Shown here: positions 45,801 through 56,110 of the stretch, in pieces
Layout of the letters: each line of letters starts with the position of its first letter
Numbering within the stretch: the first letter of the stretch is position 1
Origin: an uncultured delta proteobacterium
GTDB taxonomy: Bacteria; Desulfobacterota; Desulfobacteria; Desulfobacterales; JAHEIW01
Reading direction: 5' to 3'
NCBI GenBank assembly: GCA_963706575.1
Contig: CAVPNL010000006.1
Coordinates: forward strand, 768,001 to 832,000
Length of the DNA: 64,000 nucleotides
The notes under the pieces: generated by a model
What the model saw: the letters and a program-made list of their open reading frames with translations, nothing else
Told to the model about the DNA's origin: nothing
The model's database searches: none
Translations under genes and position numbers: made by a program

Positions 45801-46573
45801 ATGTCAAATAGTGTTTCGAGAGAATCCGCCTGGCTGCCGCTGAGCTTGATGCGGTAATCGCCCCGCTCCCATTTGAATGCTTCATCCATCCTCCCGGCAA
45901 GGGTCAGCGACATATCCGCTCCCTTGATGTCCAGCTCCAGGGACCAGGGATTTTGCGGGCCGGATAATTCCGCTGCACTTTCGGCGGCGAGCCGGATGGT
46001 GAAGGCTTTTCCTTTTGCCGTACCCCGGCCCTCAATCCGCTCCGGTTCCCCGGGGATGTTCCAGAGCCGGGCCTCGTTTATCTCGAAGCGATTGCTGTTG
46101 CCATCCACCGATCTATAATTAATGGTGGTTTCTTTGACCAAAAGTCGCTCAATGGGCGGAAGCACCCCGGGTGTTTCGCTGTCACCGAAAGTGTAATTGT
46201 TGGCACCGCCGGGACCTTCCTCAATGAGCAGGTTTAGACCGCTAAACGCAACGTCCAGAATCCTCAAATTGCCGCGCAGCAGCGGAAAAAGCGCCACCTG
46301 AAGACTGACTTTTTCAGCGGTGGCAAAATGCGCACCTGCGGCCCAATCCGGATTGCCGATGGTAATATCTTCGAGGATGATTCGCGGGCGCAGGGATCTT
46401 TCCAGACGGATGGGACCGTCGATCTGGACCTGCCGCCCGAAGGCGGCACTGGCCCGGGTTTCCAGTTGATTTCGATAAATAGAAGGATCCACAAAAACCA
46501 AAGCGGCAATCGCCGCAACGGCGAGCAGCACTAGCCCGATAAAGATAAAAAAAAAGATTTTATAGCTGCGCAT
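42896..46573 (-). CDS. AsmA-family protein (long, repeated beta-taco segments)
   Basis: N-terminal TM anchor, GRQVQIDG...IGNPDW...LFPLLRG..I, C-terminal G.LNL..E.LD...PV.IGGTLSEP. Confidence 0.8.
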   Translation of the reverse strand: MRSYKIFFFIFIGLVLLAVAAIAALVFVDPSIYRNQLETRASAAFGRQVQIDGPIRLERSLRPRIILEDITIGNPDWAAGAHFATAEKVSLQVALFPLLRGNLRILDVAFSGLNLLIEEGPGGANNYTFGDSETPGVLPPIERLLVKETTINYRSVDGNSNRFEINEARLWNIPGEPERIEGRGTAKGKAFTIRLAAESAAELSGPQNPWSLELDIKGADMSLTLAGRMDEAFKWERGDYRIKLSGSQADSLETLFDIEFPTIGPFELSANVNAKDGLFSAKDIAALVHGPPETPAIKISQGEASGGLDEPLQIALQGRLGDASLSFRFASAQPLEGISQTTPWPIEAQLNLADMKLKIDGEMIPATVAEGFEFDAQLQGETLNTLAQLMDTDLPKTGPYQFSFHTQVAKASYTLTELKGTIENAGPWKTLRIVEGNGSAHDKGSVKASINAELDNVPLSLSFQGDPAASGKSGAATWPLKLEASASGAKLTGEGSVVTNEKRTVLQLATQIKGNRFESLGPPIGSSFPAIGKFNLSADISSDGTVHEANNLKIQMGDNRLTGNVRWEDKAPRPFLKGKLFSDHLTLGQLLDTASKPSSKTWEAGLLDRPIKLDSLKDFDAMLDFTVKRVADSPIPVADIRSIVTLANGELSAPFRASLAGAPLDGQVQLNQPKNVPVVALKMTIGNIDVGHTLKELKISDIVAGTADAVDLDGSSTGKTLRALGEKAAFNLQIKPANLSYTAEIANQAVDIRVESAKLIARKDQPLTGAFNGTVQGAAFKAEISTANLMEIQKADIPLPVQGTLQTEDLQFKAEGTISRPFENNEFELQYELAGTEIERLGRLVDFAVPLRGEFHASGRITGRGNRFIFEEDLRIGKSDLKADITVLRDPPHNKITGRISASQIHMDDVDLFDADKAASATQVKPRVIPDYTLPVDILLAADLDLDIKADRIRAPLGDLGEFVSKVSLKDGRFTSSLRITGFKGAQIISEFDVDAAADPPRKRIHINAKDLNSGFLLSRMDVTDLVEGQVDLLVDLSGSGATRYSFLGNAAGRITIIGGPGKITGRQIDLWAADLIPTMLSNSWQRDDVTETNCMVAHIELKEGQAEIEDLLLDTQRVTVAASGLLNLETEALDVLIAPRPKRASLVSLANPVRIGGTLSEPKVSVTRIPKGSRLAAGAGASLLAGLINPVFLIFALSDTGTGDANPCDAAVEKVREAAGVDSQ

Positions 46574-46658
46574 TATTTAATGTCTATTCTGTGGACAGTT
46601 GATATGGATCAGAACTTGCTTTTCCGGCTGTTTAAATTAGAATGCATTTTTTTAAAAA

Positions 46659-46898
46659 TCAAACGAATAAGGCCTCTTTCTTCGCCCGAGACCAACGTTT
46701 AACCTGTGCTTCTCGTTGCCTCTCCTCAGAAAAAGAATCGTGTTCTTCAGAGTAGAAGAGTGAAAGGGGAGGGTTTAAGGAGGTGGTTCTGCCTGCGGAA
46801 CCAGCACGATGCGCTGCATAGCGTTTTTCTAGATTTTTTGTCGCACCAATATATAGAGTACCGGATTGAAGTCTCAGAATATAAAACCAGGCGGTCAT
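46659..46898 (-). CDS. GIY-YIG nuclease (UPF0213-like), C-terminally truncated copy
   Basis: FYIL...LYIGAT.NLEKRY..H...REAQVKRWSRAKKEAL; closely similar to 51603-51887. Confidence 0.8.
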   Translation of the reverse strand: MTAWFYILRLQSGTLYIGATKNLEKRYAAHRAGSAGRTTSLNPPLSLFYSEEHDSFSEERQREAQVKRWSRAKKEALFV

Positions 46899-47069
46899 AG
46901 ATTAGCTAAACAAAAAGCAATGGATTCAAAGCCATTCGAACCTCAGATAGGCCCTTCGACAAGCTCAGGGCCATTTCTCCGCTTTCATAAACAATCAGTA
47001 ATCTCACCGTGGCCGAAGGCCTTGAGCAAGAAAAGGGCATACATTGGTGTAGGCCCTTTTGGCGTCGAA

Positions 47070-47369
47070 ATGGCTGGCCGAACCAGTCGATACACGAACC
47101 CTGAAGCCATTATTGAAATCCCCTTTGATCCTGTCTTGTACCTTAAAATCATAACTGAACGTCGTGCTTATATTTCTTTTGATAATTATTTTGAGAAGGC
47201 CAAGTTGTATCAGAATTTGTTGGAATCTGGCAAGGTTAAAAACTTAGGTGAACTTGCACGAATGAAAAAGGTCTCTAAAGCGAGGATTTTTAAAATCTTA
47301 GACCACTATGATAATAAAGTTAAATCAGAATTGAACAAAGATAAAAATTCGAATAGGGCAGGTTTTTAA
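47070..47369 (+). CDS. HTH-containing remnant typical of integrative-element ends (start uncertain)
   Basis: KAKLYQNLLESGKVKNLGELARMKKVSKARIFKIL; begins at the att-like repeat. Confidence 0.45.
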   Translation: MAGRTSRYTNPEAIIEIPFDPVLYLKIITERRAYISFDNYFEKAKLYQNLLESGKVKNLGELARMKKVSKARIFKILDHYDNKVKSELNKDKNSNRAGF

Positions 47370-47702
47370 TACTGGTAAATCTACAAAATCCCAAAATTTC
47401 ATATTGCGTCAGCACATCCTAAAAATATTCGTCCCTTCAAAATTTCAACATCAGGCACGAAACCCAAACTTTTAGGCAAGCGAAATTTGATTGCCTTTCC
47501 TGATGTAATATCCAGTCAGACTCCTCTGCGGTCTACAGTTCACCGGTGATGCTTGAATTTACCGAAATTTGAATTCCTGGTTGATTGCACATTTTGTTTC
47601 GAGTGTCCGGATATTGTATGAAATATTCTCGTTTAATTTGATATTTGGACATCTCTCAATGTATAAATGTTTCAATAAAATTAGAAATTAGGTGGTGATT
47701 TA

Positions 47703-48197
47703 ATGAAAAAAGAATTTGGATCAAATTATGCGTCGATTTCTGATGTAAATTTTAAAGCCAAATACCGGGCAAGTTGTTACTGCAATGCGGTACAATACGA
47801 AGTATGCTCGGATCCTGTAGATGCAAAAATATGTCATTGCTTGGCATGTCAAAAACTGCATGGGGCTCCTATGCAATGGGCAGCTATATTTCATAAACAT
47901 GATGTCAGAATTACGGAAGGCATTGATCATCTTAACTTTTACAACAATGAACTCAACAAACACGAGAGAATTCTTCCTTGCAAAGTCAGTTGTGCTTTGT
48001 GTGGCACCCTTATTGCCGATGAAGGACGCAATATGTGGCTTGCGTTTCCATCACTTTTTAATTTTGGGGGTGTAGCAAAGGTTCCGACGAAATTCAAACC
48101 AACGTGCCATATTTTCTATGGTATGCGAGTTATTGATATAAATGATGATCTGCCTAAGTGGTTAGGTCACAAAAATCAAAGCCCAAAATTCGATTAA
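47703..48197 (+). CDS. GFA/CENP-V family Zn protein
   Basis: CYC..V.Y, CHCLACQK, CALCGT, PTCHIFY. Confidence 0.88.
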   Translation: MKKEFGSNYASISDVNFKAKYRASCYCNAVQYEVCSDPVDAKICHCLACQKLHGAPMQWAAIFHKHDVRITEGIDHLNFYNNELNKHERILPCKVSCALCGTLIADEGRNMWLAFPSLFNFGGVAKVPTKFKPTCHIFYGMRVIDINDDLPKWLGHKNQSPKFD

Positions 48198-48304
48198 TGG
48201 GGGTGTGAAATCATCTATCCGACACCTTTGATTCTGAAGTTAAAAAAACTATCATTGGCATGATTTATTTCGTGATAGGGACTAATAATTTAATGGGGGC
48301 CATT

Positions 48305-48682
48305 ATGGATTACGCTTTCGATAAACTAACAGGAAGGCTCATCATCCATGTCGATGGGTCTGATAGTCTCAGAAATAGAACAGTTAAATATCAAAAGGCT
48401 TTTGAATCCGAAAGGTGGTGGCCTGGGAGTGATGTATTGTTTTTTGTAAGTGATACCTATTCACCACCGGCGTTGCAGGAAATTGATGATTTGTACAAAC
48501 TATTTGATAGACACAGTGTTCGCAAGGTTGCTATTATGTCCGGAGATGTCTTAGCAAAAGCGACGGCTGATACCGCAAAGCGAATTGCGAAAATGTACCG
48601 AATCCCCTTAAAATACTTTACTGATTTGCAAGAGATGTTTGATTGGATTAACGATGATATCAGAATGGGCCATCAGGTATGA
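48305..48682 (+). CDS. Hypothetical protein, SpoIIAA-like/STAS-SEC14-like
   Basis: KVAIM...YFTDLQEMFDWI C-terminal pattern. Confidence 0.5.
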   Translation: MDYAFDKLTGRLIIHVDGSDSLRNRTVKYQKAFESERWWPGSDVLFFVSDTYSPPALQEIDDLYKLFDRHSVRKVAIMSGDVLAKATADTAKRIAKMYRIPLKYFTDLQEMFDWINDDIRMGHQV

Positions 48683-48896
48683 AAGACAGAGATACGATAG
48701 AAAAGGGGAGCATCTCTGCTGAATGTAAAAGAGGAGTTCAAGATCTATTCTGAAAATCTTAGGATTGGCAAATGAAATGCACAATAAATTGAAGGGAATT
48801 CTAAAGATTCGATACAGGCACGAAAGATAAAACCAGACAGATTGCAAAATGTTGCAGAATTGCATATGCAATATGCAAATCTATAACTGATGGACT

Positions 48897-49133
48897 ATGG
48901 TAAATTGTAATGCTCACATGGAGCGTTTCTTTGGTAGTTTGAAGTCAGAGCGTTTGGTATCCTGTCGCTTTGCAACTCGCCAAACAACAAAAATCAAGAT
49001 ACTTGAATACATCATTGATTTCAACTTTGCTCGTCTTCATTCGGCGCTGGGATATAAAAGCTCAAGGCAATATGAAAAATAACAATTTTTGAACGTAGCT
49101 TATGGACGTATCCATTTTTACTTGACCATTACA
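48897..49133 (+). mobile_element. IS3-family remnant (transposase C-terminus and right end)
   Basis: NAHMERFFGSLKSE...RLHSALGYKS; ends with TCCATTTTTACTTGACCATTACA (TG...CA-type IS3 end). Confidence 0.8.
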
Positions 49134-49498
49134 TTGTGTTCTGTTCCAGTTAGTCTTGGCCATAAAAGATGATTAAACATCCACTTTTAGGTTTATTTGT
49201 ACACCCTTCCTGCGCCAGTAACGGTTAACAAAGATCCCTGCCCTTGGCTTAAAGGGTTTAGCCTATTTATCTTCATTGCTTACGTTTAATGTGTTCTCGT
49301 CAATTACAACTTATATTTAACTGTAAGAATTTATTCGCCTGTACGACAAACTAAAAGATGAAACTAATTTAGAATATAATACGTAATGCAAGCACATGTA
49401 GCGTTGTATACTTGCAAGCGGCAATTTTTTTATTTAGCAACGACAATTCAAATTAGCAGAATCAAAAAAGTACAATATAATAATAATTTGTGACGATT

Positions 49499-51043
49499 AT
49501 GGACTATAATAAATCAATCCCAATTTCGGATCATGTTTTTTGGGTCGGCACATTTGATACACAGGATAATTTTCAGTGCAACACTTATCTGATTATCGTC
49601 GATGGGAAAGGAGTAATTATTGATCCCGGTTCGGTGCTTTATTTTGATTCATTAATGAAAAAAATTTCAGAGCGAATCGAATTGAAAAATATTTCCCATA
49701 TCATTCTTCAACACCAGGATCCGGATGTATGCGGCAACATTGCGATGTTGGTTGACGCCATTGTGGCTGCCGGCAACAAAAGTTTTAAGATACTAACCCA
49801 TTCAAGAACCTCCGCACTGGTGCGCCATTATGGGGCCAATATGAACTTTGAATTTACCAATAAGATTCCGGAGGAGAAAATATTCTTAGGTCTTGACCAT
49901 GAACTGGAGTTTATTCATACGCCTTATTTACATGCGCCAGGTGCCATTGCTACCTATTTTAATACCGATAAAATCCTTTTCTCCAGCGATATTTTCGGCG
50001 GGATGACGGATAAATGGAATCTTTTTGCCGGAGAGACGTATTTTGACGATATCTCAACCTTTCATAAAGAGTATATGCCTGCCAAGGAATTGCTTTTTTT
50101 TGCTATGACCAAGTTTGAACGCTACGATATTAATAAAATCGCCCCTCAACATGGCTCTGTCATTAACAAAGAACAAGCCAAAACTTTGATTGAGACTTTT
50201 AAAGATTTCGAATGCGGATTATTTATAGATAAGGCTTTCCGGGAAGAACTTCAGGAGGCCCGCAAAAAGATCGAGGAACAAAACCAGATTATGAGTAAGG
50301 ATTTATCCATGGCGGGCCATTTCCAGCAGACATTGCTTCCGGACAAAAAAAAGATAGCCTGGAAAAACGGCGTGGATTTAGCGTATTATTATAAACCCTA
50401 CAGCCAGGTTTCAGGCGACTTTCTCATCATCGATAAAATTGATGCGCACCATCTGGGGATTATGGTGGTGGATGTAGTCGATCACGGTGTAATGTCCGGT
50501 CTGGCAACTATCCAAATCAAAACCCTTTTTGATGAGTACAAAAGTACTACTCTAAACCCGGCCGATGTGCTGAGAACAATAAATGATAAAGCCTTTAGTA
50601 TCGCTGAAAATGATATTTTTTTTACCGCCTTTTATGCGATATATGATCTTGAGAATTCAAAGATTGAACTTGCTTCTGCAGGGGGCATTCCAGCAATATA
50701 TTTTAACGCCGCCAGAAATGAAAAGGAGCTTATTTCTTTAGCCGGCACTTCTTTAGGAGTGACAAGAGGTGATGATTGCCGCATCGATATAAAAAGCTTG
50801 TCAGTCAGTCAAGGCGACATATTAATTCTGCAAACAGACGGTTTAATGGATTCGACCAATGAAAGCAATATTCCCTTTGATCATGCGAGATCCCAAAAGA
50901 AATTTATGGCTGAAATCAAAAAAGAAAGAAGTGCCCAACAGATTCTTGATGCCGTCATAGAAAAAGCTGAAATTCATAAAGGCCTGGATAAATCTTTTGA
51001 TGATGATGTCACTATTGCCATATTAAAAATAGCCAAAGATTAA
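49499..51043 (+). CDS. MBL-fold di-iron (ODP/FprA-like) domain fused to a SpoIIE/PP2C phosphatase
   Basis: IIDPG, HQDPD, HAPG, FSSDIFG, IAPQHG; coiled coil; VSGDF, DVVDHG, TDGL, DDDVT. Confidence 0.85.
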   Translation: MDYNKSIPISDHVFWVGTFDTQDNFQCNTYLIIVDGKGVIIDPGSVLYFDSLMKKISERIELKNISHIILQHQDPDVCGNIAMLVDAIVAAGNKSFKILTHSRTSALVRHYGANMNFEFTNKIPEEKIFLGLDHELEFIHTPYLHAPGAIATYFNTDKILFSSDIFGGMTDKWNLFAGETYFDDISTFHKEYMPAKELLFFAMTKFERYDINKIAPQHGSVINKEQAKTLIETFKDFECGLFIDKAFREELQEARKKIEEQNQIMSKDLSMAGHFQQTLLPDKKKIAWKNGVDLAYYYKPYSQVSGDFLIIDKIDAHHLGIMVVDVVDHGVMSGLATIQIKTLFDEYKSTTLNPADVLRTINDKAFSIAENDIFFTAFYAIYDLENSKIELASAGGIPAIYFNAARNEKELISLAGTSLGVTRGDDCRIDIKSLSVSQGDILILQTDGLMDSTNESNIPFDHARSQKKFMAEIKKERSAQQILDAVIEKAEIHKGLDKSFDDDVTIAILKIAKD

Positions 51044-51391
51044 TTTGTCTCTCTAATTTCAGCAAATTTAAGTTTATCGCTATAACTGGGCCAATACGAT
51101 ACGGAGAATCTGGATCTAATTAAACTTTACATCCTCTGCGAAACCAATTCCCTTGATCCCCCCTCTTTGGTATCAATGACATATCTGCAATCCCATTGTT
51201 TGAAATTCCCCAGCCAACAGTTTTTTCAGAAAATTTTATATTAGGTATACAAATCCTAAAAACATCGAAAGATGCGATTACGGCTGATGAACCCATCATC
51301 ACAATAATTTGCACCTTATATCAGACCGTCTAAAAGGATGGTCCATTATATTTTTCTTTATTTATCTGAGCTAAAAAGAAAGGAGTTTATA

Positions 51392-51565
51392 ATGGGTCGT
51401 CGTTGTAAGTTGGATGGTTTGGAGGTGACCGTTGAAGAAGGTGATATGCTGCCTTATCATGAGCTTTTTGCATTGAAGGCGATAATTAAGAAGGTAGCTT
51501 TGCGAATGATGAAAGAAATGGAAGAACAGTTCGAATCTGAAAAAGCTATCATTGAGGCTACTTAA
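51392..51565 (+). CDS. Small hypothetical protein
   Basis: AAGGAG RBS, 57-aa ORF. Confidence 0.45.
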   Translation: MGRRCKLDGLEVTVEEGDMLPYHELFALKAIIKKVALRMMKEMEEQFESEKAIIEAT

Positions 51566-51602
51566 CAAAGAGTCGAACCGTCCTTACGAACTCACACAAA
51601 TT

Positions 51603-51887
51603 CTAATTTTTCTGGGATTTTGAGAGCGCTCGCAATTTATCCTTATCTCCAGCCACTAAAGCTTCTTTTTTAGCGCGAGACCAACGCTTAACCTGTGCTT
51701 CTCGTTGCCGAGCTTTAGAAAAAGATTCTTGTTCCTCAGAATAGACGAGCGAAACGGGAGGGTCTATGGCGGTTGTTCTGCCGGCGGAACCGGCACAATG
51801 CTCTGCATAGCGTTTTTCTAAATTTTTTGTTGCGCCAATATATAGAGAACCGGATTGAAGTCGCAGAATGTAAAACCAGGCGGTCAT
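51603..51887 (-). CDS. GIY-YIG nuclease (UPF0213-like)
   Basis: FYILRLQSGSLYIGATKNLEKRYAEH...ARQREAQVKRWSRAKKEAL. Confidence 0.9.
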   Translation of the reverse strand: MTAWFYILRLQSGSLYIGATKNLEKRYAEHCAGSAGRTTAIDPPVSLVYSEEQESFSKARQREAQVKRWSRAKKEALVAGDKDKLRALSKSQKN

Positions 51888-52072
51888 TTAATAAATGAGA
51901 AAATTCAGGTAATGGACAGATAAGAAGTTATTGAAATATTGAAGGGCCTTTCGACAGGCTCAAGGCCATTTCGACGCGCTCATATGATTATTGAGTATTT
52001 AACCCTGGCCAAAGGCCTTGAGCAAGTGAAGGGAGCACCCACTTTGTGGCGTACCCCCTGAGCGCGTCGAAA

Positions 52073-52146
52073 TGGCTGAGGGACCAGGATTCGAACCTGG
52101 GTTAACGGGGCCAGAACCCGTCGTCCTGCCGCTAGACGATCCCTCA
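52073..52146 (-). tRNA. tRNA-Gln (anticodon CTG)
   Basis: TGAGGGA...ACGGG-TTCTGGC-CCCGT...CCAGG-TTCGAAT-CCTGG-TCCCTCAG-CCA; 74 nt cloverleaf with encoded CCA. Confidence 0.97.
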
Positions 52147-52210
52147 GCGTGTTGTAATTATAACAAAATATATAAGATTCGCATACTCGTCAAGTCAATT
52201 TTTTACATGA

Positions 52211-52274
52211 GGTTCAGGGTTCAGAGGTTCTGGGTTAAAACAACCTTGAACGCTGAACCTGGAACCTTTGAACC
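52211..52274. repeat. 7/8-nt periodic inverted-repeat element (GGTTCAG family)
   Basis: GGTTCAGGGTTCAGAGGTTCTGGGTT ... AACCTTGAACGCTGAACCTGGAACCTTTGAACC. Confidence 0.75.
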
Positions 52275-52290
52275 CGGTGACTGACACCTT

Positions 52291-53727
52291 TTATGAAGGC
52301 CTTGCCTTGATGAACCGGATAGCCTTCTTAAGCCTTGAAACGACCTTGTCCTTGCCCAGGATGGCGGTTACTTCAAAGATACCGGGGCTGGCGGTTTTAC
52401 CGGTCAGGGCCACGCGCACCGGTTGCGCGATTTTGCCCAGCTTGAGGCCGGTTTGGCCCATAACGGTCTTAAAGGCGGTTTCCAAATTTTTTTCGGAAAA
52501 ATCTTCCATTTTTTCAAACTGGTCGATCAACAGCTGCAAGGCTTCGACCGCCATCGGTTTTAAAAATTTTTTGGCCGCCTTTTCTTCATAGTCGATATCA
52601 TTTGCAAAATAAAACAAAGAAATTTCAGCCATTTCATCCAGGGTTTTGCTGCGGGCGTGCAGGGTCTCGATTACCTTTATCAGGAGGCCGTTGTCATAAA
52701 TCTCTATGCCGCGGCGCTTTAAAAAGGGCTGAAGGGGCCCCACGAGTTTTTCAGGAGGCATGGCCCGAATATGTTCGGCACTCAGCGATAAAAGCTTTTC
52801 CAGGTCAAAAACTCCGGCTGAACGCCCGATGTGCTCCAGATCAAACACCTCTATCAGCTCCTGGCGGGTAAAAAATTCCTGATCGCCATGGGACCAGCCC
52901 AGTCTGACCAGGTAGTTGAGCATGGCATCCGGCAGTATCCCCATATCGCGGTAGGCGGAAACCGATACGGCGCCATGGCGTTTGCTGAAGCGGCTTTTGT
53001 CTGTTCCCAGCACCATGGGCACATGGCCGAAAATCGGCAGCGGGCAATCCAGCGCATTATAGAGAAGGATTTGCTTGGGGGTATTCATCACGTGATCATC
53101 GCCGCGGATAACGGTGTTCACCTGCATGGTCATATCGTCGATCACCACGGCATAATTATAGGTGGGAATACCGTCGCTGCGGCACAGAATAAAATCATCC
53201 AGTTCATCATTTTGAAATACGATGTTGCCTTTGATCACATCTTCAATAACGGTTGTCCCGCTTAAAGGCGCTTTAAACCGTATCACCGCCCCGGGCGTTT
53301 TCGATAGTTCTTTATCGCGACAGGTGCCGTCATATTTCGGTTTGCCGCCGGTGGCCATGGCTTTTTGGCGCATGGCCTCAATCTCATCGGGCGAACAGGT
53401 GCAATAGTAGGCCCGGCCGGAATCGATGAGGCGTTCCAGATAGTCGCTGTAAATATCGAGGCGTTTGGTTTGATAGTAAGGACCTTCATCCCAGTCGATA
53501 CCCAGCCATTCAAGCGCTTCAAAAATAACGTCTATGGCCTCCTGGGTCGAGCGTTCGGTGTCGGTATCTTCGATACGCAAAATAAATTTTCCTTTCATGC
53601 GGCGGGCGTACAACCAGTTAAAGATAGCGGTACGCGCATTGCCGACATGCATGAAGCCGGTGGGGCTGGGTGGAAATCGTGTCACAACTGAATCATTTTT
53701 TATTTCCGCAATCATTTTAGCATTCAC
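52291..53727 (-). CDS. gltX: Glutamate--tRNA ligase
   Basis: TRFPPSPTGFMHVG, LRIEDTD, RGDDH, FSKRHG. Confidence 0.97.
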   Translation of the reverse strand: MNAKMIAEIKNDSVVTRFPPSPTGFMHVGNARTAIFNWLYARRMKGKFILRIEDTDTERSTQEAIDVIFEALEWLGIDWDEGPYYQTKRLDIYSDYLERLIDSGRAYYCTCSPDEIEAMRQKAMATGGKPKYDGTCRDKELSKTPGAVIRFKAPLSGTTVIEDVIKGNIVFQNDELDDFILCRSDGIPTYNYAVVIDDMTMQVNTVIRGDDHVMNTPKQILLYNALDCPLPIFGHVPMVLGTDKSRFSKRHGAVSVSAYRDMGILPDAMLNYLVRLGWSHGDQEFFTRQELIEVFDLEHIGRSAGVFDLEKLLSLSAEHIRAMPPEKLVGPLQPFLKRRGIEIYDNGLLIKVIETLHARSKTLDEMAEISLFYFANDIDYEEKAAKKFLKPMAVEALQLLIDQFEKMEDFSEKNLETAFKTVMGQTGLKLGKIAQPVRVALTGKTASPGIFEVTAILGKDKVVSRLKKAIRFIKARPS

Positions 53728-54112
53728 CTTTGTTTTGCCTACAAGCGTTTAATGAGTAAACTGTTAAGTAATTTTTAAAGCGCCGATTATCTGATCATCA
53801 ATATAAGATCTTGATTTGTTGATAAATTAATAATATAAATGAATTTACGAATCAATATCTAAGCCCTGTGCTGAGTAAGTAAATCAAACTTGTCAAGGAT
53901 TCTAATAATTTAGGTTGTTCGGCCGCTGGGATCTGCCGCTGAAAAACGATCGTGCTGTAACTTGGCTTCCGGAGATCGCCGTATTTTAGTATAAATTTAA
54001 TAAAATTAGATAGTTGTTTAGAATCAACAGCCATTTTGGGGGTGGTGCATTTCAATAACACAGAAGATTGTCAAGCACAAGAGAACAAATGGCAAAAAAC
54101 CGATGAAAACAC

Positions 54113-54141
54113 TTGACAATCGTTTCAAGATAAATTACTAG
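54113..54141 (+). promoter_or_regulatory. Putative sigma70 promoter for rpmF
   Basis: TTGACA-17 nt-TACTAG. Confidence 0.4.
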
Positions 54142-54211
54142 AAGCGCAACCTTAAATCTAGGTCGATTAAATTAAAATAAATATAGAATTCAGATTGTTA
54201 GGAGATTACTT

Positions 54212-54394
54212 ATGGCAGTTCCGAAACGGAAGAAATCAAAATCGAAGCGCGATAAGCGACGAACTCACCAAAAACTTACCGCAGTAAATACAGCCACTTG
54301 CCCGGAGTGTGGCGAAGCCACCCTGCCGCACCATGCATGCCCCAACTGTGGGTATTACAAGGGCCGTAAGGTCGTCGAAACCGAAGAAGACTAG
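54212..54394 (+). CDS. rpmF: 50S ribosomal protein L32
   Basis: [15 protein letters not shown]...[10 protein letters not shown]. Confidence 0.97.
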
Positions 54395-54442
54395 TCTTTT
54401 ATTCCACAGTTAACAATTCAAATTTCAAAAGGACAGAATTCA

Positions 54443-56110
54443 ATGACCTCAGACAGGATGCCGACGGAAGGTGAACTTTACGGGTTGGATCCGGAATCCA
54501 GGCAGATGGTTCTGGATACGGTGGCACAGCTAAAAAAGCGTCTGCTGACACCGGAAAAAATTTTTGAATTTGATCGTGAAGAGATATTTCCTGAAGATAC
54601 CATTCGTGAAATGCTGGGCCCTGAAATTGGACTGCAGCTTTTGATGATCCCTGAAGAATATGGCGGTCTGGGTGGCGGTGCCCGTGACAGCTGCGCCATC
54701 ACCCGGGACATGGCCAAAATATGCCTGGGCATTACGACCGCGTTTTTTGCGATTCAACTGGGTGCGGATCCGATCATCGTCGGCGGCACCGAAGAGCAAA
54801 AACACAAATGGCTCGGGAAAATCGCCGCTGGAGAAGCACTTGTGGCTTACGCGGTAACCGAACCGGATGCCGGCAGCAATGTGGCTTCCATAAAAACCAA
54901 AGCCGATCCGGTTTTAAATGATGCCGGAGAAATCACCGGATATAAGATAAACGGCGCCAAGCAATTTATTTCCACCGGCGGATACGCTGAATTCATCACG
55001 CTGCTGGCCAACACCCCCGAGGGGGCCACCTTTTTTATCGTTGAAAAAGACACCGAGGGTTATATTCGCGGAAAAGGTGAAGAAAAGCATGGAATCCGGG
55101 CTTCAAATACGTCGCCGCTGACATTTACCGATGCTTTTGTGCCGGTGGAAAACATCATTGGCGGTGTAACCGGGCAGGGGCTCAAACAGGCCAGCAAGGT
55201 ATTCGGGTATACCCGGCTGATGGTGGCTTCGATGGCGCTGGGCGGCGGCGAATCCGCCCTGGATATCGTCATTCCGTATGCCAAGGAACGGATTCAATTT
55301 AAAACGCCGCTGTCGGAAAAACAGGGCTACACCCACAAGCTGGTTGTACCGCATGCCGTTCGGCTGGCGGCGGCCGCAAATTACATTGATGAGGTGGCCA
55401 TAAGATTGGATGCCCGCGAGCATGACCTCGAAGTCGAGGGTTCCATCGCCAAGCTGTTTGCAACCGAAACCGCCAACAAGGCTGCCGATGATGCCATGCA
55501 GGCTTTAGGCGGATACGGCTATATCACCGAATATGGCATTGAAAAAATAAAAAGAGATGTCAAAATTACCTGTATTTACGAGGGTACCAGTGAAATCCAG
55601 CAAAACATCATCAGTACCTTTCGCTGGAAAAAAACGCGGAAAACAAAAGGGGCCTTTTACGAAAGTCTGGCCGATGAAATGGATAAGCTCGAAGCCCAGT
55701 GCGGCGAGGCCGGATGCCGCTATATCGCCCTGGCGGCCCGTGCGTTAAACAAAACCGTTTTTTTGGTGAATGATAATCGACTGACCCGGGAACAGTATGT
55801 CATGTTTGCCCTGGCCGACATGATGATGCATGTGGAGGTGGCAGCCAGTCTGGTGCGGCAGGCAGCTGCAGTTAGCAGTGAAAATAATCCGGAGGCCGAG
55901 AAAACATGCCTTTTCTCACGCCTGTTCGCCCATGAAGCTGCCGAACTGGTATCCGCTAATATATTAAAAATATTGAGGGGTTCCGGCGTTTTTGAACCCG
56001 AGCAGGTATCGGCCTTTCTGGCGGAAACCTCGCACGCAGCCCTGGCGGATAGCTACCAGAACATCATTCCGGACATGAACCGCGCAGCTGACATTATATT
56101 TGATCGTTAA
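54443..56110 (+). CDS. Acyl-CoA dehydrogenase with C-terminal extension
   Basis: IPEEYGGLG, AVTEPDAGS, INGAKQFI, QALGGYGY, IYEGTSEIQ. Confidence 0.9.
   Translation: MTSDRMPTEGELYGLDPESRQMVLDTVAQLKKRLLTPEKIFEFDREEIFPEDTIREMLGPEIGLQLLMIPEEYGGLGGGARDSCAITRDMAKICLGITTAFFAIQLGADPIIVGGTEEQKHKWLGKIAAGEALVAYAVTEPDAGSNVASIKTKADPVLNDAGEITGYKINGAKQFISTGGYAEFITLLANTPEGATFFIVEKDTEGYIRGKGEEKHGIRASNTSPLTFTDAFVPVENIIGGVTGQGLKQASKVFGYTRLMVASMALGGGESALDIVIPYAKERIQFKTPLSEKQGYTHKLVVPHAVRLAAAANYIDEVAIRLDAREHDLEVEGSIAKLFATETANKAADDAMQALGGYGYITEYGIEKIKRDVKITCIYEGTSEIQQNIISTFRWKKTRKTKGAFYESLADEMDKLEAQCGEAGCRYIALAARALNKTVFLVNDNRLTREQYVMFALADMMMHVEVAASLVRQAAAVSSENNPEAEKTCLFSRLFAHEAAELVSANILKILRGSGVFEPEQVSAFLAETSHAALADSYQNIIPDMNRAADIIFDR

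Follow-up and report, generated by a model that had tools for sequence, protein, structure and literature searches.

A tRNA-Gln gene of an uncultured delta proteobacterium is followed by a palindromic leader and a gene for a small GIY-YIG nuclease, and this locus is probably (we would put it at roughly 0.6) one copy of a small, nuclease-driven selfish DNA cassette that lies behind tRNA genes in many bacterial phyla. The same architecture recurs in relatives, is tied to tRNA and tmRNA ends across phyla, has covarying helices with a strand bias, and in part of these loci ends in a copy of the host tRNA tail whose start is fixed in the T-loop.

The tRNA-Gln locus

In the window (the whole stretch of 64 kb that was analysed) the cassette lies on the minus strand, with gltX and fatty-acid genes as upstream neighbours. 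Its parts, in the order of the sense strand, are:

52073..52146, minus strand: tRNA-Gln(CTG), the target gene (ARAGORN; Rfam RF00005)
52059..52076, minus strand: arm a, consisting of discriminator, CCA, TTTCGAC core and an extension
52030..52059, minus strand: V1, a variable inner hairpin with a weak T tract here (from folds)
52014..52023, minus strand: arm b (GCTC-AAGG-CC), the antisense-strand partner of arm a
52007..52017, minus strand: 4-bp mini-hairpin, whose loop in the window, AAA, deviates from the usual antisense G..A
51965..51982, minus strand: arm c, which on the sense strand pairs with arm a, CCA included (helix P1)
51945..51967, minus strand: hairpin B (CCYTGAG..CGAARGG, with tandem G·A), REP-like, which closes the leader
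51888..51944, minus strand: AT-rich spacer ahead of the start codon, without a Shine-Dalgarno-like sequence
51603..51887, minus strand: single-domain GIY-YIG nuclease gene, 94 aa, UPF0213-like (PF01541, E 7e-16)

The GCCA end of the tRNA (discriminator G plus CCA, 52073-52076) doubles as the first four bases of arm a. An earlier, sequence-only reading of this DNA had drawn attention to a perfect 18-bp inverted repeat between 51965-51982 and 52059-52076, one arm of which contains the discriminator and CCA; the repeat is present, and it is the only perfect inverted repeat of at least 18 bp with a loop of at most 200 nt in the window, with none in 10 Markov-null windows. The 10-nt pairing of 51958-51967 with 52014-52023 and the hairpin at 51945-51967 that the same reading described are likewise in the sequence, as is a GIY-YIG gene some 185 nt past the CCA on the same strand (185 nt separate the CCA from the ATG). 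Both gene and leader are intact in this copy, and a recognisable right end is absent.

Rfam covariance models, run over 46000-54500 at E values up to 1, matched the tRNA alone, and the leader fits no curated motif. A promoter and terminator scan of 46400-52400 gave counts that were not clearly above shuffles (21 vs 15.7 ± 4.8 and 6 vs 5.0 ± 2.1, respectively), and V1 was not called as a terminator in that scan. For transcription, 23 runs had matches, every one with a small share; four RNA runs, searched at 80% likeness, contained fragments of tRNAs and diverged genes from other organisms, with nothing that spans the leader.

Two further interpretations of the leader were considered. That the sequence after hairpin B is the native tRNA trailer is not established, since one of 14 comparisons with empty sites in congeners beat shuffles (L100 gave p 0.0125 and the window p 0.43). 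Arm c as a primer-binding site was dropped, just 4 nt of it being complementary to the tRNA itself. Between gltX and the tRNA promoter, at 52209-52275, lies a heptamer-like palindromic repeat with many related copies in the genome and in relatives.

Homologues and their association with tRNA ends

Homologous loci were taken from species genomes (36 loci), relatives, metagenomes (the best 80 of 173) and a phylum sample, a sampling that leaned on short peptide patterns and best hits. The 168 loci with a tblastn hit formed 123 clusters at 90% identity; the census left out seven loci without such a hit, three repeats and two close clusters with less than 170 nt upstream. A CCA-anchored motif is found in 67 of the 74 clusters that are at least 57% identical and have at least 170 nt upstream, in 8 of 31 clusters at 39–57% identity (one of the eight, L057, being a plain tRNA end) and in none of 16 below 39% (L034 has a leader by eye), and because the leaders are akin to one another, these association counts, like the covariation counts given below, are not independent. 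With regard to the 67 motif clusters, L008 and L036 match the first motif only, and leader parts of L020, L137 and L163 escaped the motif.

Of the 67 close clusters with the motif, 37 sit directly on a complete tRNA, 31 of them on tRNA-Asn and 6 on tRNA-Gln. Another 30 close leaders are without a complete tRNA: some are at contig edges, at least two (L006 and L024) lie directly behind the 3' half of an intron-split tRNA-Asn, and the others sit behind short displaced tRNA ends. Targets besides Asn and Gln include tRNA-Ser, tRNA-Met and tmRNA (Ser and tmRNA among the clusters at 39–57% identity), and the hosts include Nitrospirota, Planctomycetota, Lentisphaerota, Ignavibacteriota, Acidobacteriota and Patescibacteria. 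The earlier proposal that a structured element comes with a nuclease of its own and is linked to the 3' ends of tRNAs is supported by these homologues, which associate with tRNA or tmRNA ends, carry the same motifs and keep a CCA pairing that covaries.

Among 26 tRNA-Gln(CTG) loci from the same genome and its relatives, the trailer takes one of several forms: a full leader plus gene, a leader that lacks the gene, a leader remnant, or sequence unrelated to it. None of eight candidate relatives on viral contigs was confirmed, and all matches in plasmids (23 records) and phages (20 records) are below 60% identity.

Several loci have features of their own. Group I introns (RF00028, 78–93 bits) at L006:1381-1748, L024:1597-1877 and L150:286-548 end just before the 3' half of tRNA-Asn(GTT), and the tRNA-Asn genes of these three loci appear to be intron-split and to have been missed by ARAGORN; L168 and L171 have the same flanking motif. 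A literature search for introns in bacterial tRNA-Asn found nothing. At L042, L187, L193, L200 and L205, inverted pairs of the cassette's hairpin lie on either side of more distant GIY-YIG genes (40–47% identity), away from any tRNA, and these loci are likely a sister group or the ancestor of the tRNA-anchored form. GIY-YIG genes of 45% identity lie ∼110 nt behind tRNA-Lys in L195 and L199, with a different palindrome of the GAG..CGA type, and are in tandem in L195.

Leader structure and strand bias

The leader runs on the sense strand through arm a, V1, arm b, the 4-bp mini-hairpin, a spacer, arm c and hairpin B. Arm a reads NCCA, then T, TT, C or TC, then TCGAC; arm b reads GCTC, two bases and GG; and arm c ends in TGG. 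Arm a has two partners, namely arm c on the sense strand and, via tandem G·A, arm b on the antisense strand. The parser used here needs the TGG arm and parsed 62 of 77 distinct leaders. In the bases that follow the CCA, arm a agrees in type with arm b in all 56 leaders parsed for both and covaries with arm c in 58/58, and the stem of hairpin B is complementary at three covarying positions in 53 of 62. P1 and the mini-hairpin together show 16 two-sided changes vs 3.6 in shuffles (0/500), as counted in a 24-row alignment of the longer-arm type only; a 35-row alignment misregistered the shorter-arm type. The 18-bp repeat is present in the window, but its perfect length is untypical of the family, in which the conserved a/c core spans 11–12 bp and often contains G·A pairs.

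The interleaved pairing between arm b and hairpin B is weakly or not supported in relatives: it shows no two-sided change, its covariation is 0.127 vs 0.128 in shuffles, and 19 of 24 rows have one mismatch. It is perfect in just 7 of 56 leaders; as 90% of its alignment cells still pair, it may yet occur as an alternative fold.

In L021 and L022 the CCA is not encoded and arms b and c match the altered genomic letters, so that the pairing of these arms tracks the gene and not the mature tRNA. The last letters of hairpin B are CCA in 40 of 68 leaders. The leaders of L114, L120, L151, L154 and L176 contain hairpin units within hairpin units, in as many as three layers, both within arm b and in the hairpin B loop.

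Of the 58 non-Watson–Crick pairs in the P1 core, 54 are G·A or A·G, found at two positions of the sense strand. Hairpin B likewise has its tandem G·A on that strand. The T·C and C·T pairs of the a:b stem on the sense strand correspond to tandem G·A on the antisense strand, and the mini-hairpin loop, variable in length and middle bases, never reads G..A on the sense strand but does so on the antisense strand in 44 of the 52 leaders parsed. Loops of the GNA and GNNA type with sheared G·A pairs are reported to be exceptionally stable when made of DNA, and far less stable when made of RNA (PMC13037366). Given the tandem G·A pairs and the antisense-only G..A mini-loops, a structure kept on both strands suggests single-stranded DNA as the simplest explanation; the sense-strand helices (P1 and hairpin B) by themselves are equally possible as RNA.

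It might be expected that a structured tRNA trailer acts as RNA, the pre-tRNA trailer pairing the CCA and coupling 3' processing or read-through to nuclease expression, or that the nuclease cuts the tRNA. P1 and hairpin B do fold on the sense strand, where G·A and edge G·U pairs are tolerated, and the window leader folds strongly as RNA (z -7.8 against shuffles, 0/200 as good). Read-through from the tRNA promoter is moreover a plausible source of mRNA, given that Shine-Dalgarno sequences are scarce (3 of 55 nuclease genes) and that there is no significant leaderless promoter signal (a leaderless -10 in 10 of 55 vs 6 expected, p 0.06). However, it is on the antisense strand that arm b and the G..A loops fold, many leaders lie behind displaced tRNA fragments, and V1, which is terminator-like in many relatives, contains a run of TTTT in 14 of the 28 leaders parsed, enough to stop many transcripts before arm c. 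An RNA mechanism would also leave the T-loop-anchored tail duplication (below) unexplained, and the GIY-YIG nuclease SsnA is reported not to bind RNA (PMC11893778). An RNA-level element is in our view distinctly unlikely, and the switch coupling tRNA processing to nuclease expression that the sequence-only reading had offered is weakly or not supported in the face of an antisense-folding arm and mini-loop and the displaced tRNA fragments.

Covariation may also arise by other means. Template switching is reported to yield compensatory changes without selection (PMC8794818), and since this is seen in L099, whose leader (970-1060) is a perfect palindrome with an inverted loop and a lost arm b, the covariation of P1 alone is no proof of function. 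Template switching probably explains the short perfect forms of congeners and part of the 18 bp of the window; it does not account for the retained G·A mismatches. Just past its end, the gene in L099 has its 3' end repeated in a second small copy in inverted orientation, again with the look of a template switch.

Duplicated tRNA tails and dispersed hairpins

A copy of the host tRNA tail (20 nt, positions 57–76) lies downstream of the gene in 14 of 43 testable clusters, that is, close clusters with a T arm upstream and at least 150 nt downstream. The copy starts at G57 in the T-loop, with no further matching base in 10 cases and one in 4, in most cases directly abuts a right-end hairpin ending CGAAGG, and in 12 of the 14 matches its own host tRNA best among nine tail types. 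The units so bracketed are 481–593 nt long and hold the nuclease gene and little else, being too small for a recombinase. Of the 43 testable clusters, 29 have no tail copy, among them the window and those Gln copies that were tested, and right-end motifs occur in 26 of 71 clusters and not in the window.

Hairpin B is also found as a dispersed repeat, with 22, 13 and 40 copies in three of five searched genomes (vs 3, 0 and 1 in the control) and 1–2 copies in the other two, mostly far from tRNAs (a tRNA or tmRNA is present in 5 of 30 fetched loci). A 12-nt flanking direct repeat accompanies 6 of 28 hairpin B copies (local p ≤0.02), and two of these are tRNA-Pro tail copies. In L212 and L219 (genome G459, ∼1500) a tRNA-Pro is followed by a reverse-complement tail piece, hairpin B and a direct 11–12-nt tail copy, an arrangement that is a miniature, gene-less form of the cassette scar.

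tRNA ends are general hotspots of genomic islands, and the window has 4.5 kb of low-GC DNA at this one. It is conceivable that the palindromes are REP-like repeats which spread alone or via another nuclease, that the GIY-YIG gene is carried along as a passenger or encodes a structure-specific repair nuclease that has been domesticated, and that the tails are attR scars of lost integrase-borne islands. The dispersed copies of hairpin B, the existence of gene-less leaders (L082, L069, L072 and L079) and a protein fold closest to UPF0213 and Slx1 would all suit such a history. Nevertheless, we consider it unlikely: leader and gene are tightly linked (67/74), the short bracketed units have little room for anything but the nuclease gene, and the tail start is fixed at the T-loop, mostly abutting the element's own right-end hairpin. 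A profile search also found no tyrosine integrase (PF00589) or Y1 transposase on the window's contig (Y1_Tnp has six matches genome-wide), and a PF07508 recombinase has no match in the genome as assembled (92% complete). The third GIY-YIG homologue of the genome, a distant UPF0213 copy of the housekeeping type, is without a leader.

The nuclease protein

The window protein scores 58.7 bits against PF01541 (cut-off 22.6) and belongs to the GIY-YIG superfamily, and its catalytic-type residues (Y6, Y16, G18, R26, H30 and the metal-binding E63) are invariant in 26 rows. The structure model of the 94-aa protein has a pLDDT of 92.8. Its best sequence matches are the UPF0213 structures 1YWL and 1ZG2 (E 8e-9 and 4e-7), and a fold search ranks UPF0213 first (31% identity) and Slx1 next; the libraries searched contained no curated family model, and NCBIfam gave a sub-threshold match only. 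Values of dN/dS between 0.05 and 0.17 in 10 comparisons indicate purifying selection on the nuclease gene, and internal stops are found in 5 of 76 close clusters.

A quick tree of 80 rows (33 chosen close clusters and more distant ones) and 97 columns, in which 42 of 77 branches are open and which serves as a pointer only, places the window proteins in a Gln clade (SH-aLRT 96) inside a 31-row clade (96) that is wholly anchored at tRNA ends. More distant tRNA-end copies lie elsewhere in that tree, with 5 changes of the tRNA-end label, rather than 1, vs 27 when shuffled.

Relation to known systems

SsnA is described as cutting single-stranded DNA beside its own hairpin while ignoring double-stranded DNA and RNA, and NTS-ssnA-NTS was likened to a mobile unit by its authors (Chenal et al. 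2025; PMC11893778). The cassette nuclease is like Ssn (cd10448) in being a single-domain GIY-YIG protein of ∼94 aa, within the limit of <150 aa, with flanking imperfect hairpin repeats, and the SsnA catalytic mutants Y6, Y17 and E64 echo the invariant Y6, Y16 and E63, a resemblance of numbering and not of aligned positions (PMC11893778). The SRM/NTS pattern of Ssn, as given in PMC11893778, has no match around either window copy and lies near 1 of 76 close clusters, and the Ssn repeat described there differs from the GAG..CGA tandem G·A stems of the cassette. Unlike Ssn, the cassette is anchored at the tRNA CCA and has a T-loop tail duplication; the word 'tRNA' does not occur in the main text of PMC11893778. 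SRM-flanked L063 and L066, which stand in for Ssn, fall on a separate branch of length 2.8 in the quick 97-column tree (L190, labelled SRM, sits among non-SRM rows and may be mislabelled). By sequence, this separate branch and the UPF0213 best PDB matches would point away from membership in cd10448.

The CGTC and GTAG REPs are short imperfect palindromes, often in inverted dimers, and CGTC elements are reported to carry a CCA tail that stays unpaired (Di Nocera et al. 2013; PMC3733652). The cassette shares with REP/RAYT systems the short imperfect palindromes, and the CCA ends of hairpin B resemble the CGTC tails (PMC3733652). Its leader, however, has no GTAG or CGTC tag, and its enzyme is a GIY-YIG nuclease instead of an HUH transposase ('GIY' does not occur in the article text of PMC3733652). 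Many dispersed copies of the palindrome mark REP/RAYT systems; the core motif has only 2 copies in this genome, and hairpin B has 13–40 copies in three of five other genomes and 1–2 in the rest.

Stand-alone GIY-YIG proteins of the UPF0213/YhbQ type (1YWL, 1ZG2), together with Slx1, are the closest sequence and fold relatives of the cassette nuclease. Unlike the cassette genes, distant UPF0213-type genes in the sample are without a leader (0/16 by motif), and a literature search found no specificity for UPF0213/YhbQ proteins.

Integrase-borne tRNA islands lie between an intact tRNA and a displaced copy of that tRNA's 3' end. The tRNA-end duplication in 14 of 43 related clusters may be comparable (the window has just the possible decayed fragment at 47075-47100), but the cassette differs from such islands in its units of 481–593 nt without a recombinase, its palindromic ends and a tail start fixed at G57. 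Free-standing GIY-YIG homing endonucleases like T4 SegB are encoded near tRNA genes and may promote their own spread; the cassette nuclease, unlike these, has no separate DNA-binding domain, and the target tRNA gene is kept whole.

Because the SRM test fails and neither an HUH transposase nor a recombinase is present, we do not file the cassette under Ssn, REPtrons or integrase islands. It is best read as an element that works in the manner of Ssn/NTS, with a nuclease from the UPF0213 branch and with tRNA ends as its target. This tRNA-end hairpin/nuclease cassette is apparently undescribed: a literature search found no description of one, and subscription papers or the supplements of PMC11893778 and PMC3733652 could hold one.

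A possible mechanism

A complete cassette comprises the tRNA 3' end, the palindromic leader, the GIY-YIG nuclease, the right-end hairpin and the 20-nt copy of the host tRNA tail. Its hairpins may fold in single-stranded DNA, at a replication fork or in a transcription bubble, and the nuclease, like SsnA, would bind such hairpins and nick beside them, most likely in the T-loop at C56/G57. Cleavage by the nuclease and mobility of the cassette are both inferred. Host repair and strand annealing would copy the cassette in behind the CCA and duplicate the tail, and thus the tRNA would stay intact. We know of no joining activity in the GIY-YIG domain, so joining would have to come from the host. The tail copy may be a target duplication from staggered nicks or, alternatively, the homology arm of a circle or homing event. 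More speculatively, CCA pairing on both strands could mark the end of the element or shield an occupied gene from being cut again.

A more far-reaching and rather doubtful possibility is a class of mobile elements that uses neither recombinase nor reverse transcriptase, in which the nuclease would read a tRNA-like fold in single-stranded DNA and nick the T-loop, occupied genes would be immune via the two-strand CCA pairing, and the CCA tails of CGTC-type REPs would be tRNA mimicry. The fold would be formed by the T arm, acceptor stem and CCA of the single-stranded tRNA gene, with arm c pairing the CCA on the top strand and arm b on the bottom strand, both at once. Such mimicry, if true, would tie Ssn-type nucleases to the recognition of tRNA genes. 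If the reading as a nuclease-driven selfish cassette is right, a function and a natural substrate would be at hand for the large, uncharacterised UPF0213-like branch of GIY-YIG proteins, along with a minimal, integrase-free route for DNA insertion at tRNA ends, and the spread of REP-like palindromes could be tested with one 94-aa protein and short oligonucleotides. Small hairpin-guided single-strand nucleases are also useful as tools, as shown for Ssn.

The second copy and the surrounding genome

Leader and gene occur a second time, in decayed form, 5 kb further on and on the same strand as the first copy (46659-47074):

47075..51600, no strand: low-GC stretch (0.36–0.40) between the copies, with ODP/SpoIIE, an integrase-core fragment, GFA and small ORFs
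47075..47100, minus strand: possible decayed T-arm/acceptor fragment of tRNA-Gln before the second leader (from resemblance in an alignment, with no statistical test)
46950..47074, minus strand: second leader copy, with arm c of the G·A type, beginning at GCCA without a complete tRNA
46659..46898, minus strand: GIY-YIG gene of the second copy, with 83% identity across 78 aa and cut off after residue 77

The truncation point of the second gene is the junction with a flank common to relatives. In L099, a metagenomic relative with 90% protein identity, the first copy is joined straight to the AsmA-like flank, and both the low-GC stretch (4.5 kb) and the second copy are missing. The second copy of the window is displaced and truncated. 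The leader core motif occurs nowhere else in this genome, whose other 42 tRNA genes are without a leader.

A defence function is a further candidate. Site-specific restriction, in which the nuclease would cut incoming single-stranded DNA that carries tRNA-end att sites or hairpins and would guard the tRNA hotspot, mobility being secondary, would be in keeping with the report that SsnA lowers the integration of NTS-bearing transforming DNA (PMC11893778), and the cassette does occupy an island hotspot with a gene under purifying selection. Yet this site, although occupied, apparently went on to acquire 4.5 kb as well as a second copy, the patchy presence among congeners and the insertion scars fit a selfish element, and PADLOC matched none of five proteins. 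We regard a role in defence as very unlikely, and the nuclease-driven selfish cassette as the preferred reading of the locus.

The source genome (G000) also encodes tRNA-Pyl and tRNA-SeC, at C15:118432-118505 and C3:141925-142022, and no tmRNA was detected in it. An ORF of 167 aa at 46866-47369 on the plus strand overlaps the second leader; it has no Pfam match, is related by the Atlas to ParB-type HTH proteins (score 0.91, the family being on 42% of members), and may be a real gene in its C-terminal part only. A similar divergent HTH-like remnant is seen by eye upstream in L003 and L044. Within the low-GC stretch, both on the plus strand, 48897-49082 is an IS3-type integrase-core fragment (rve_2, E 3e-12), and 49490-51043 encodes a fusion protein of an ODP (oxygen-binding di-iron) domain with a SpoIIE/PP2C phosphatase.
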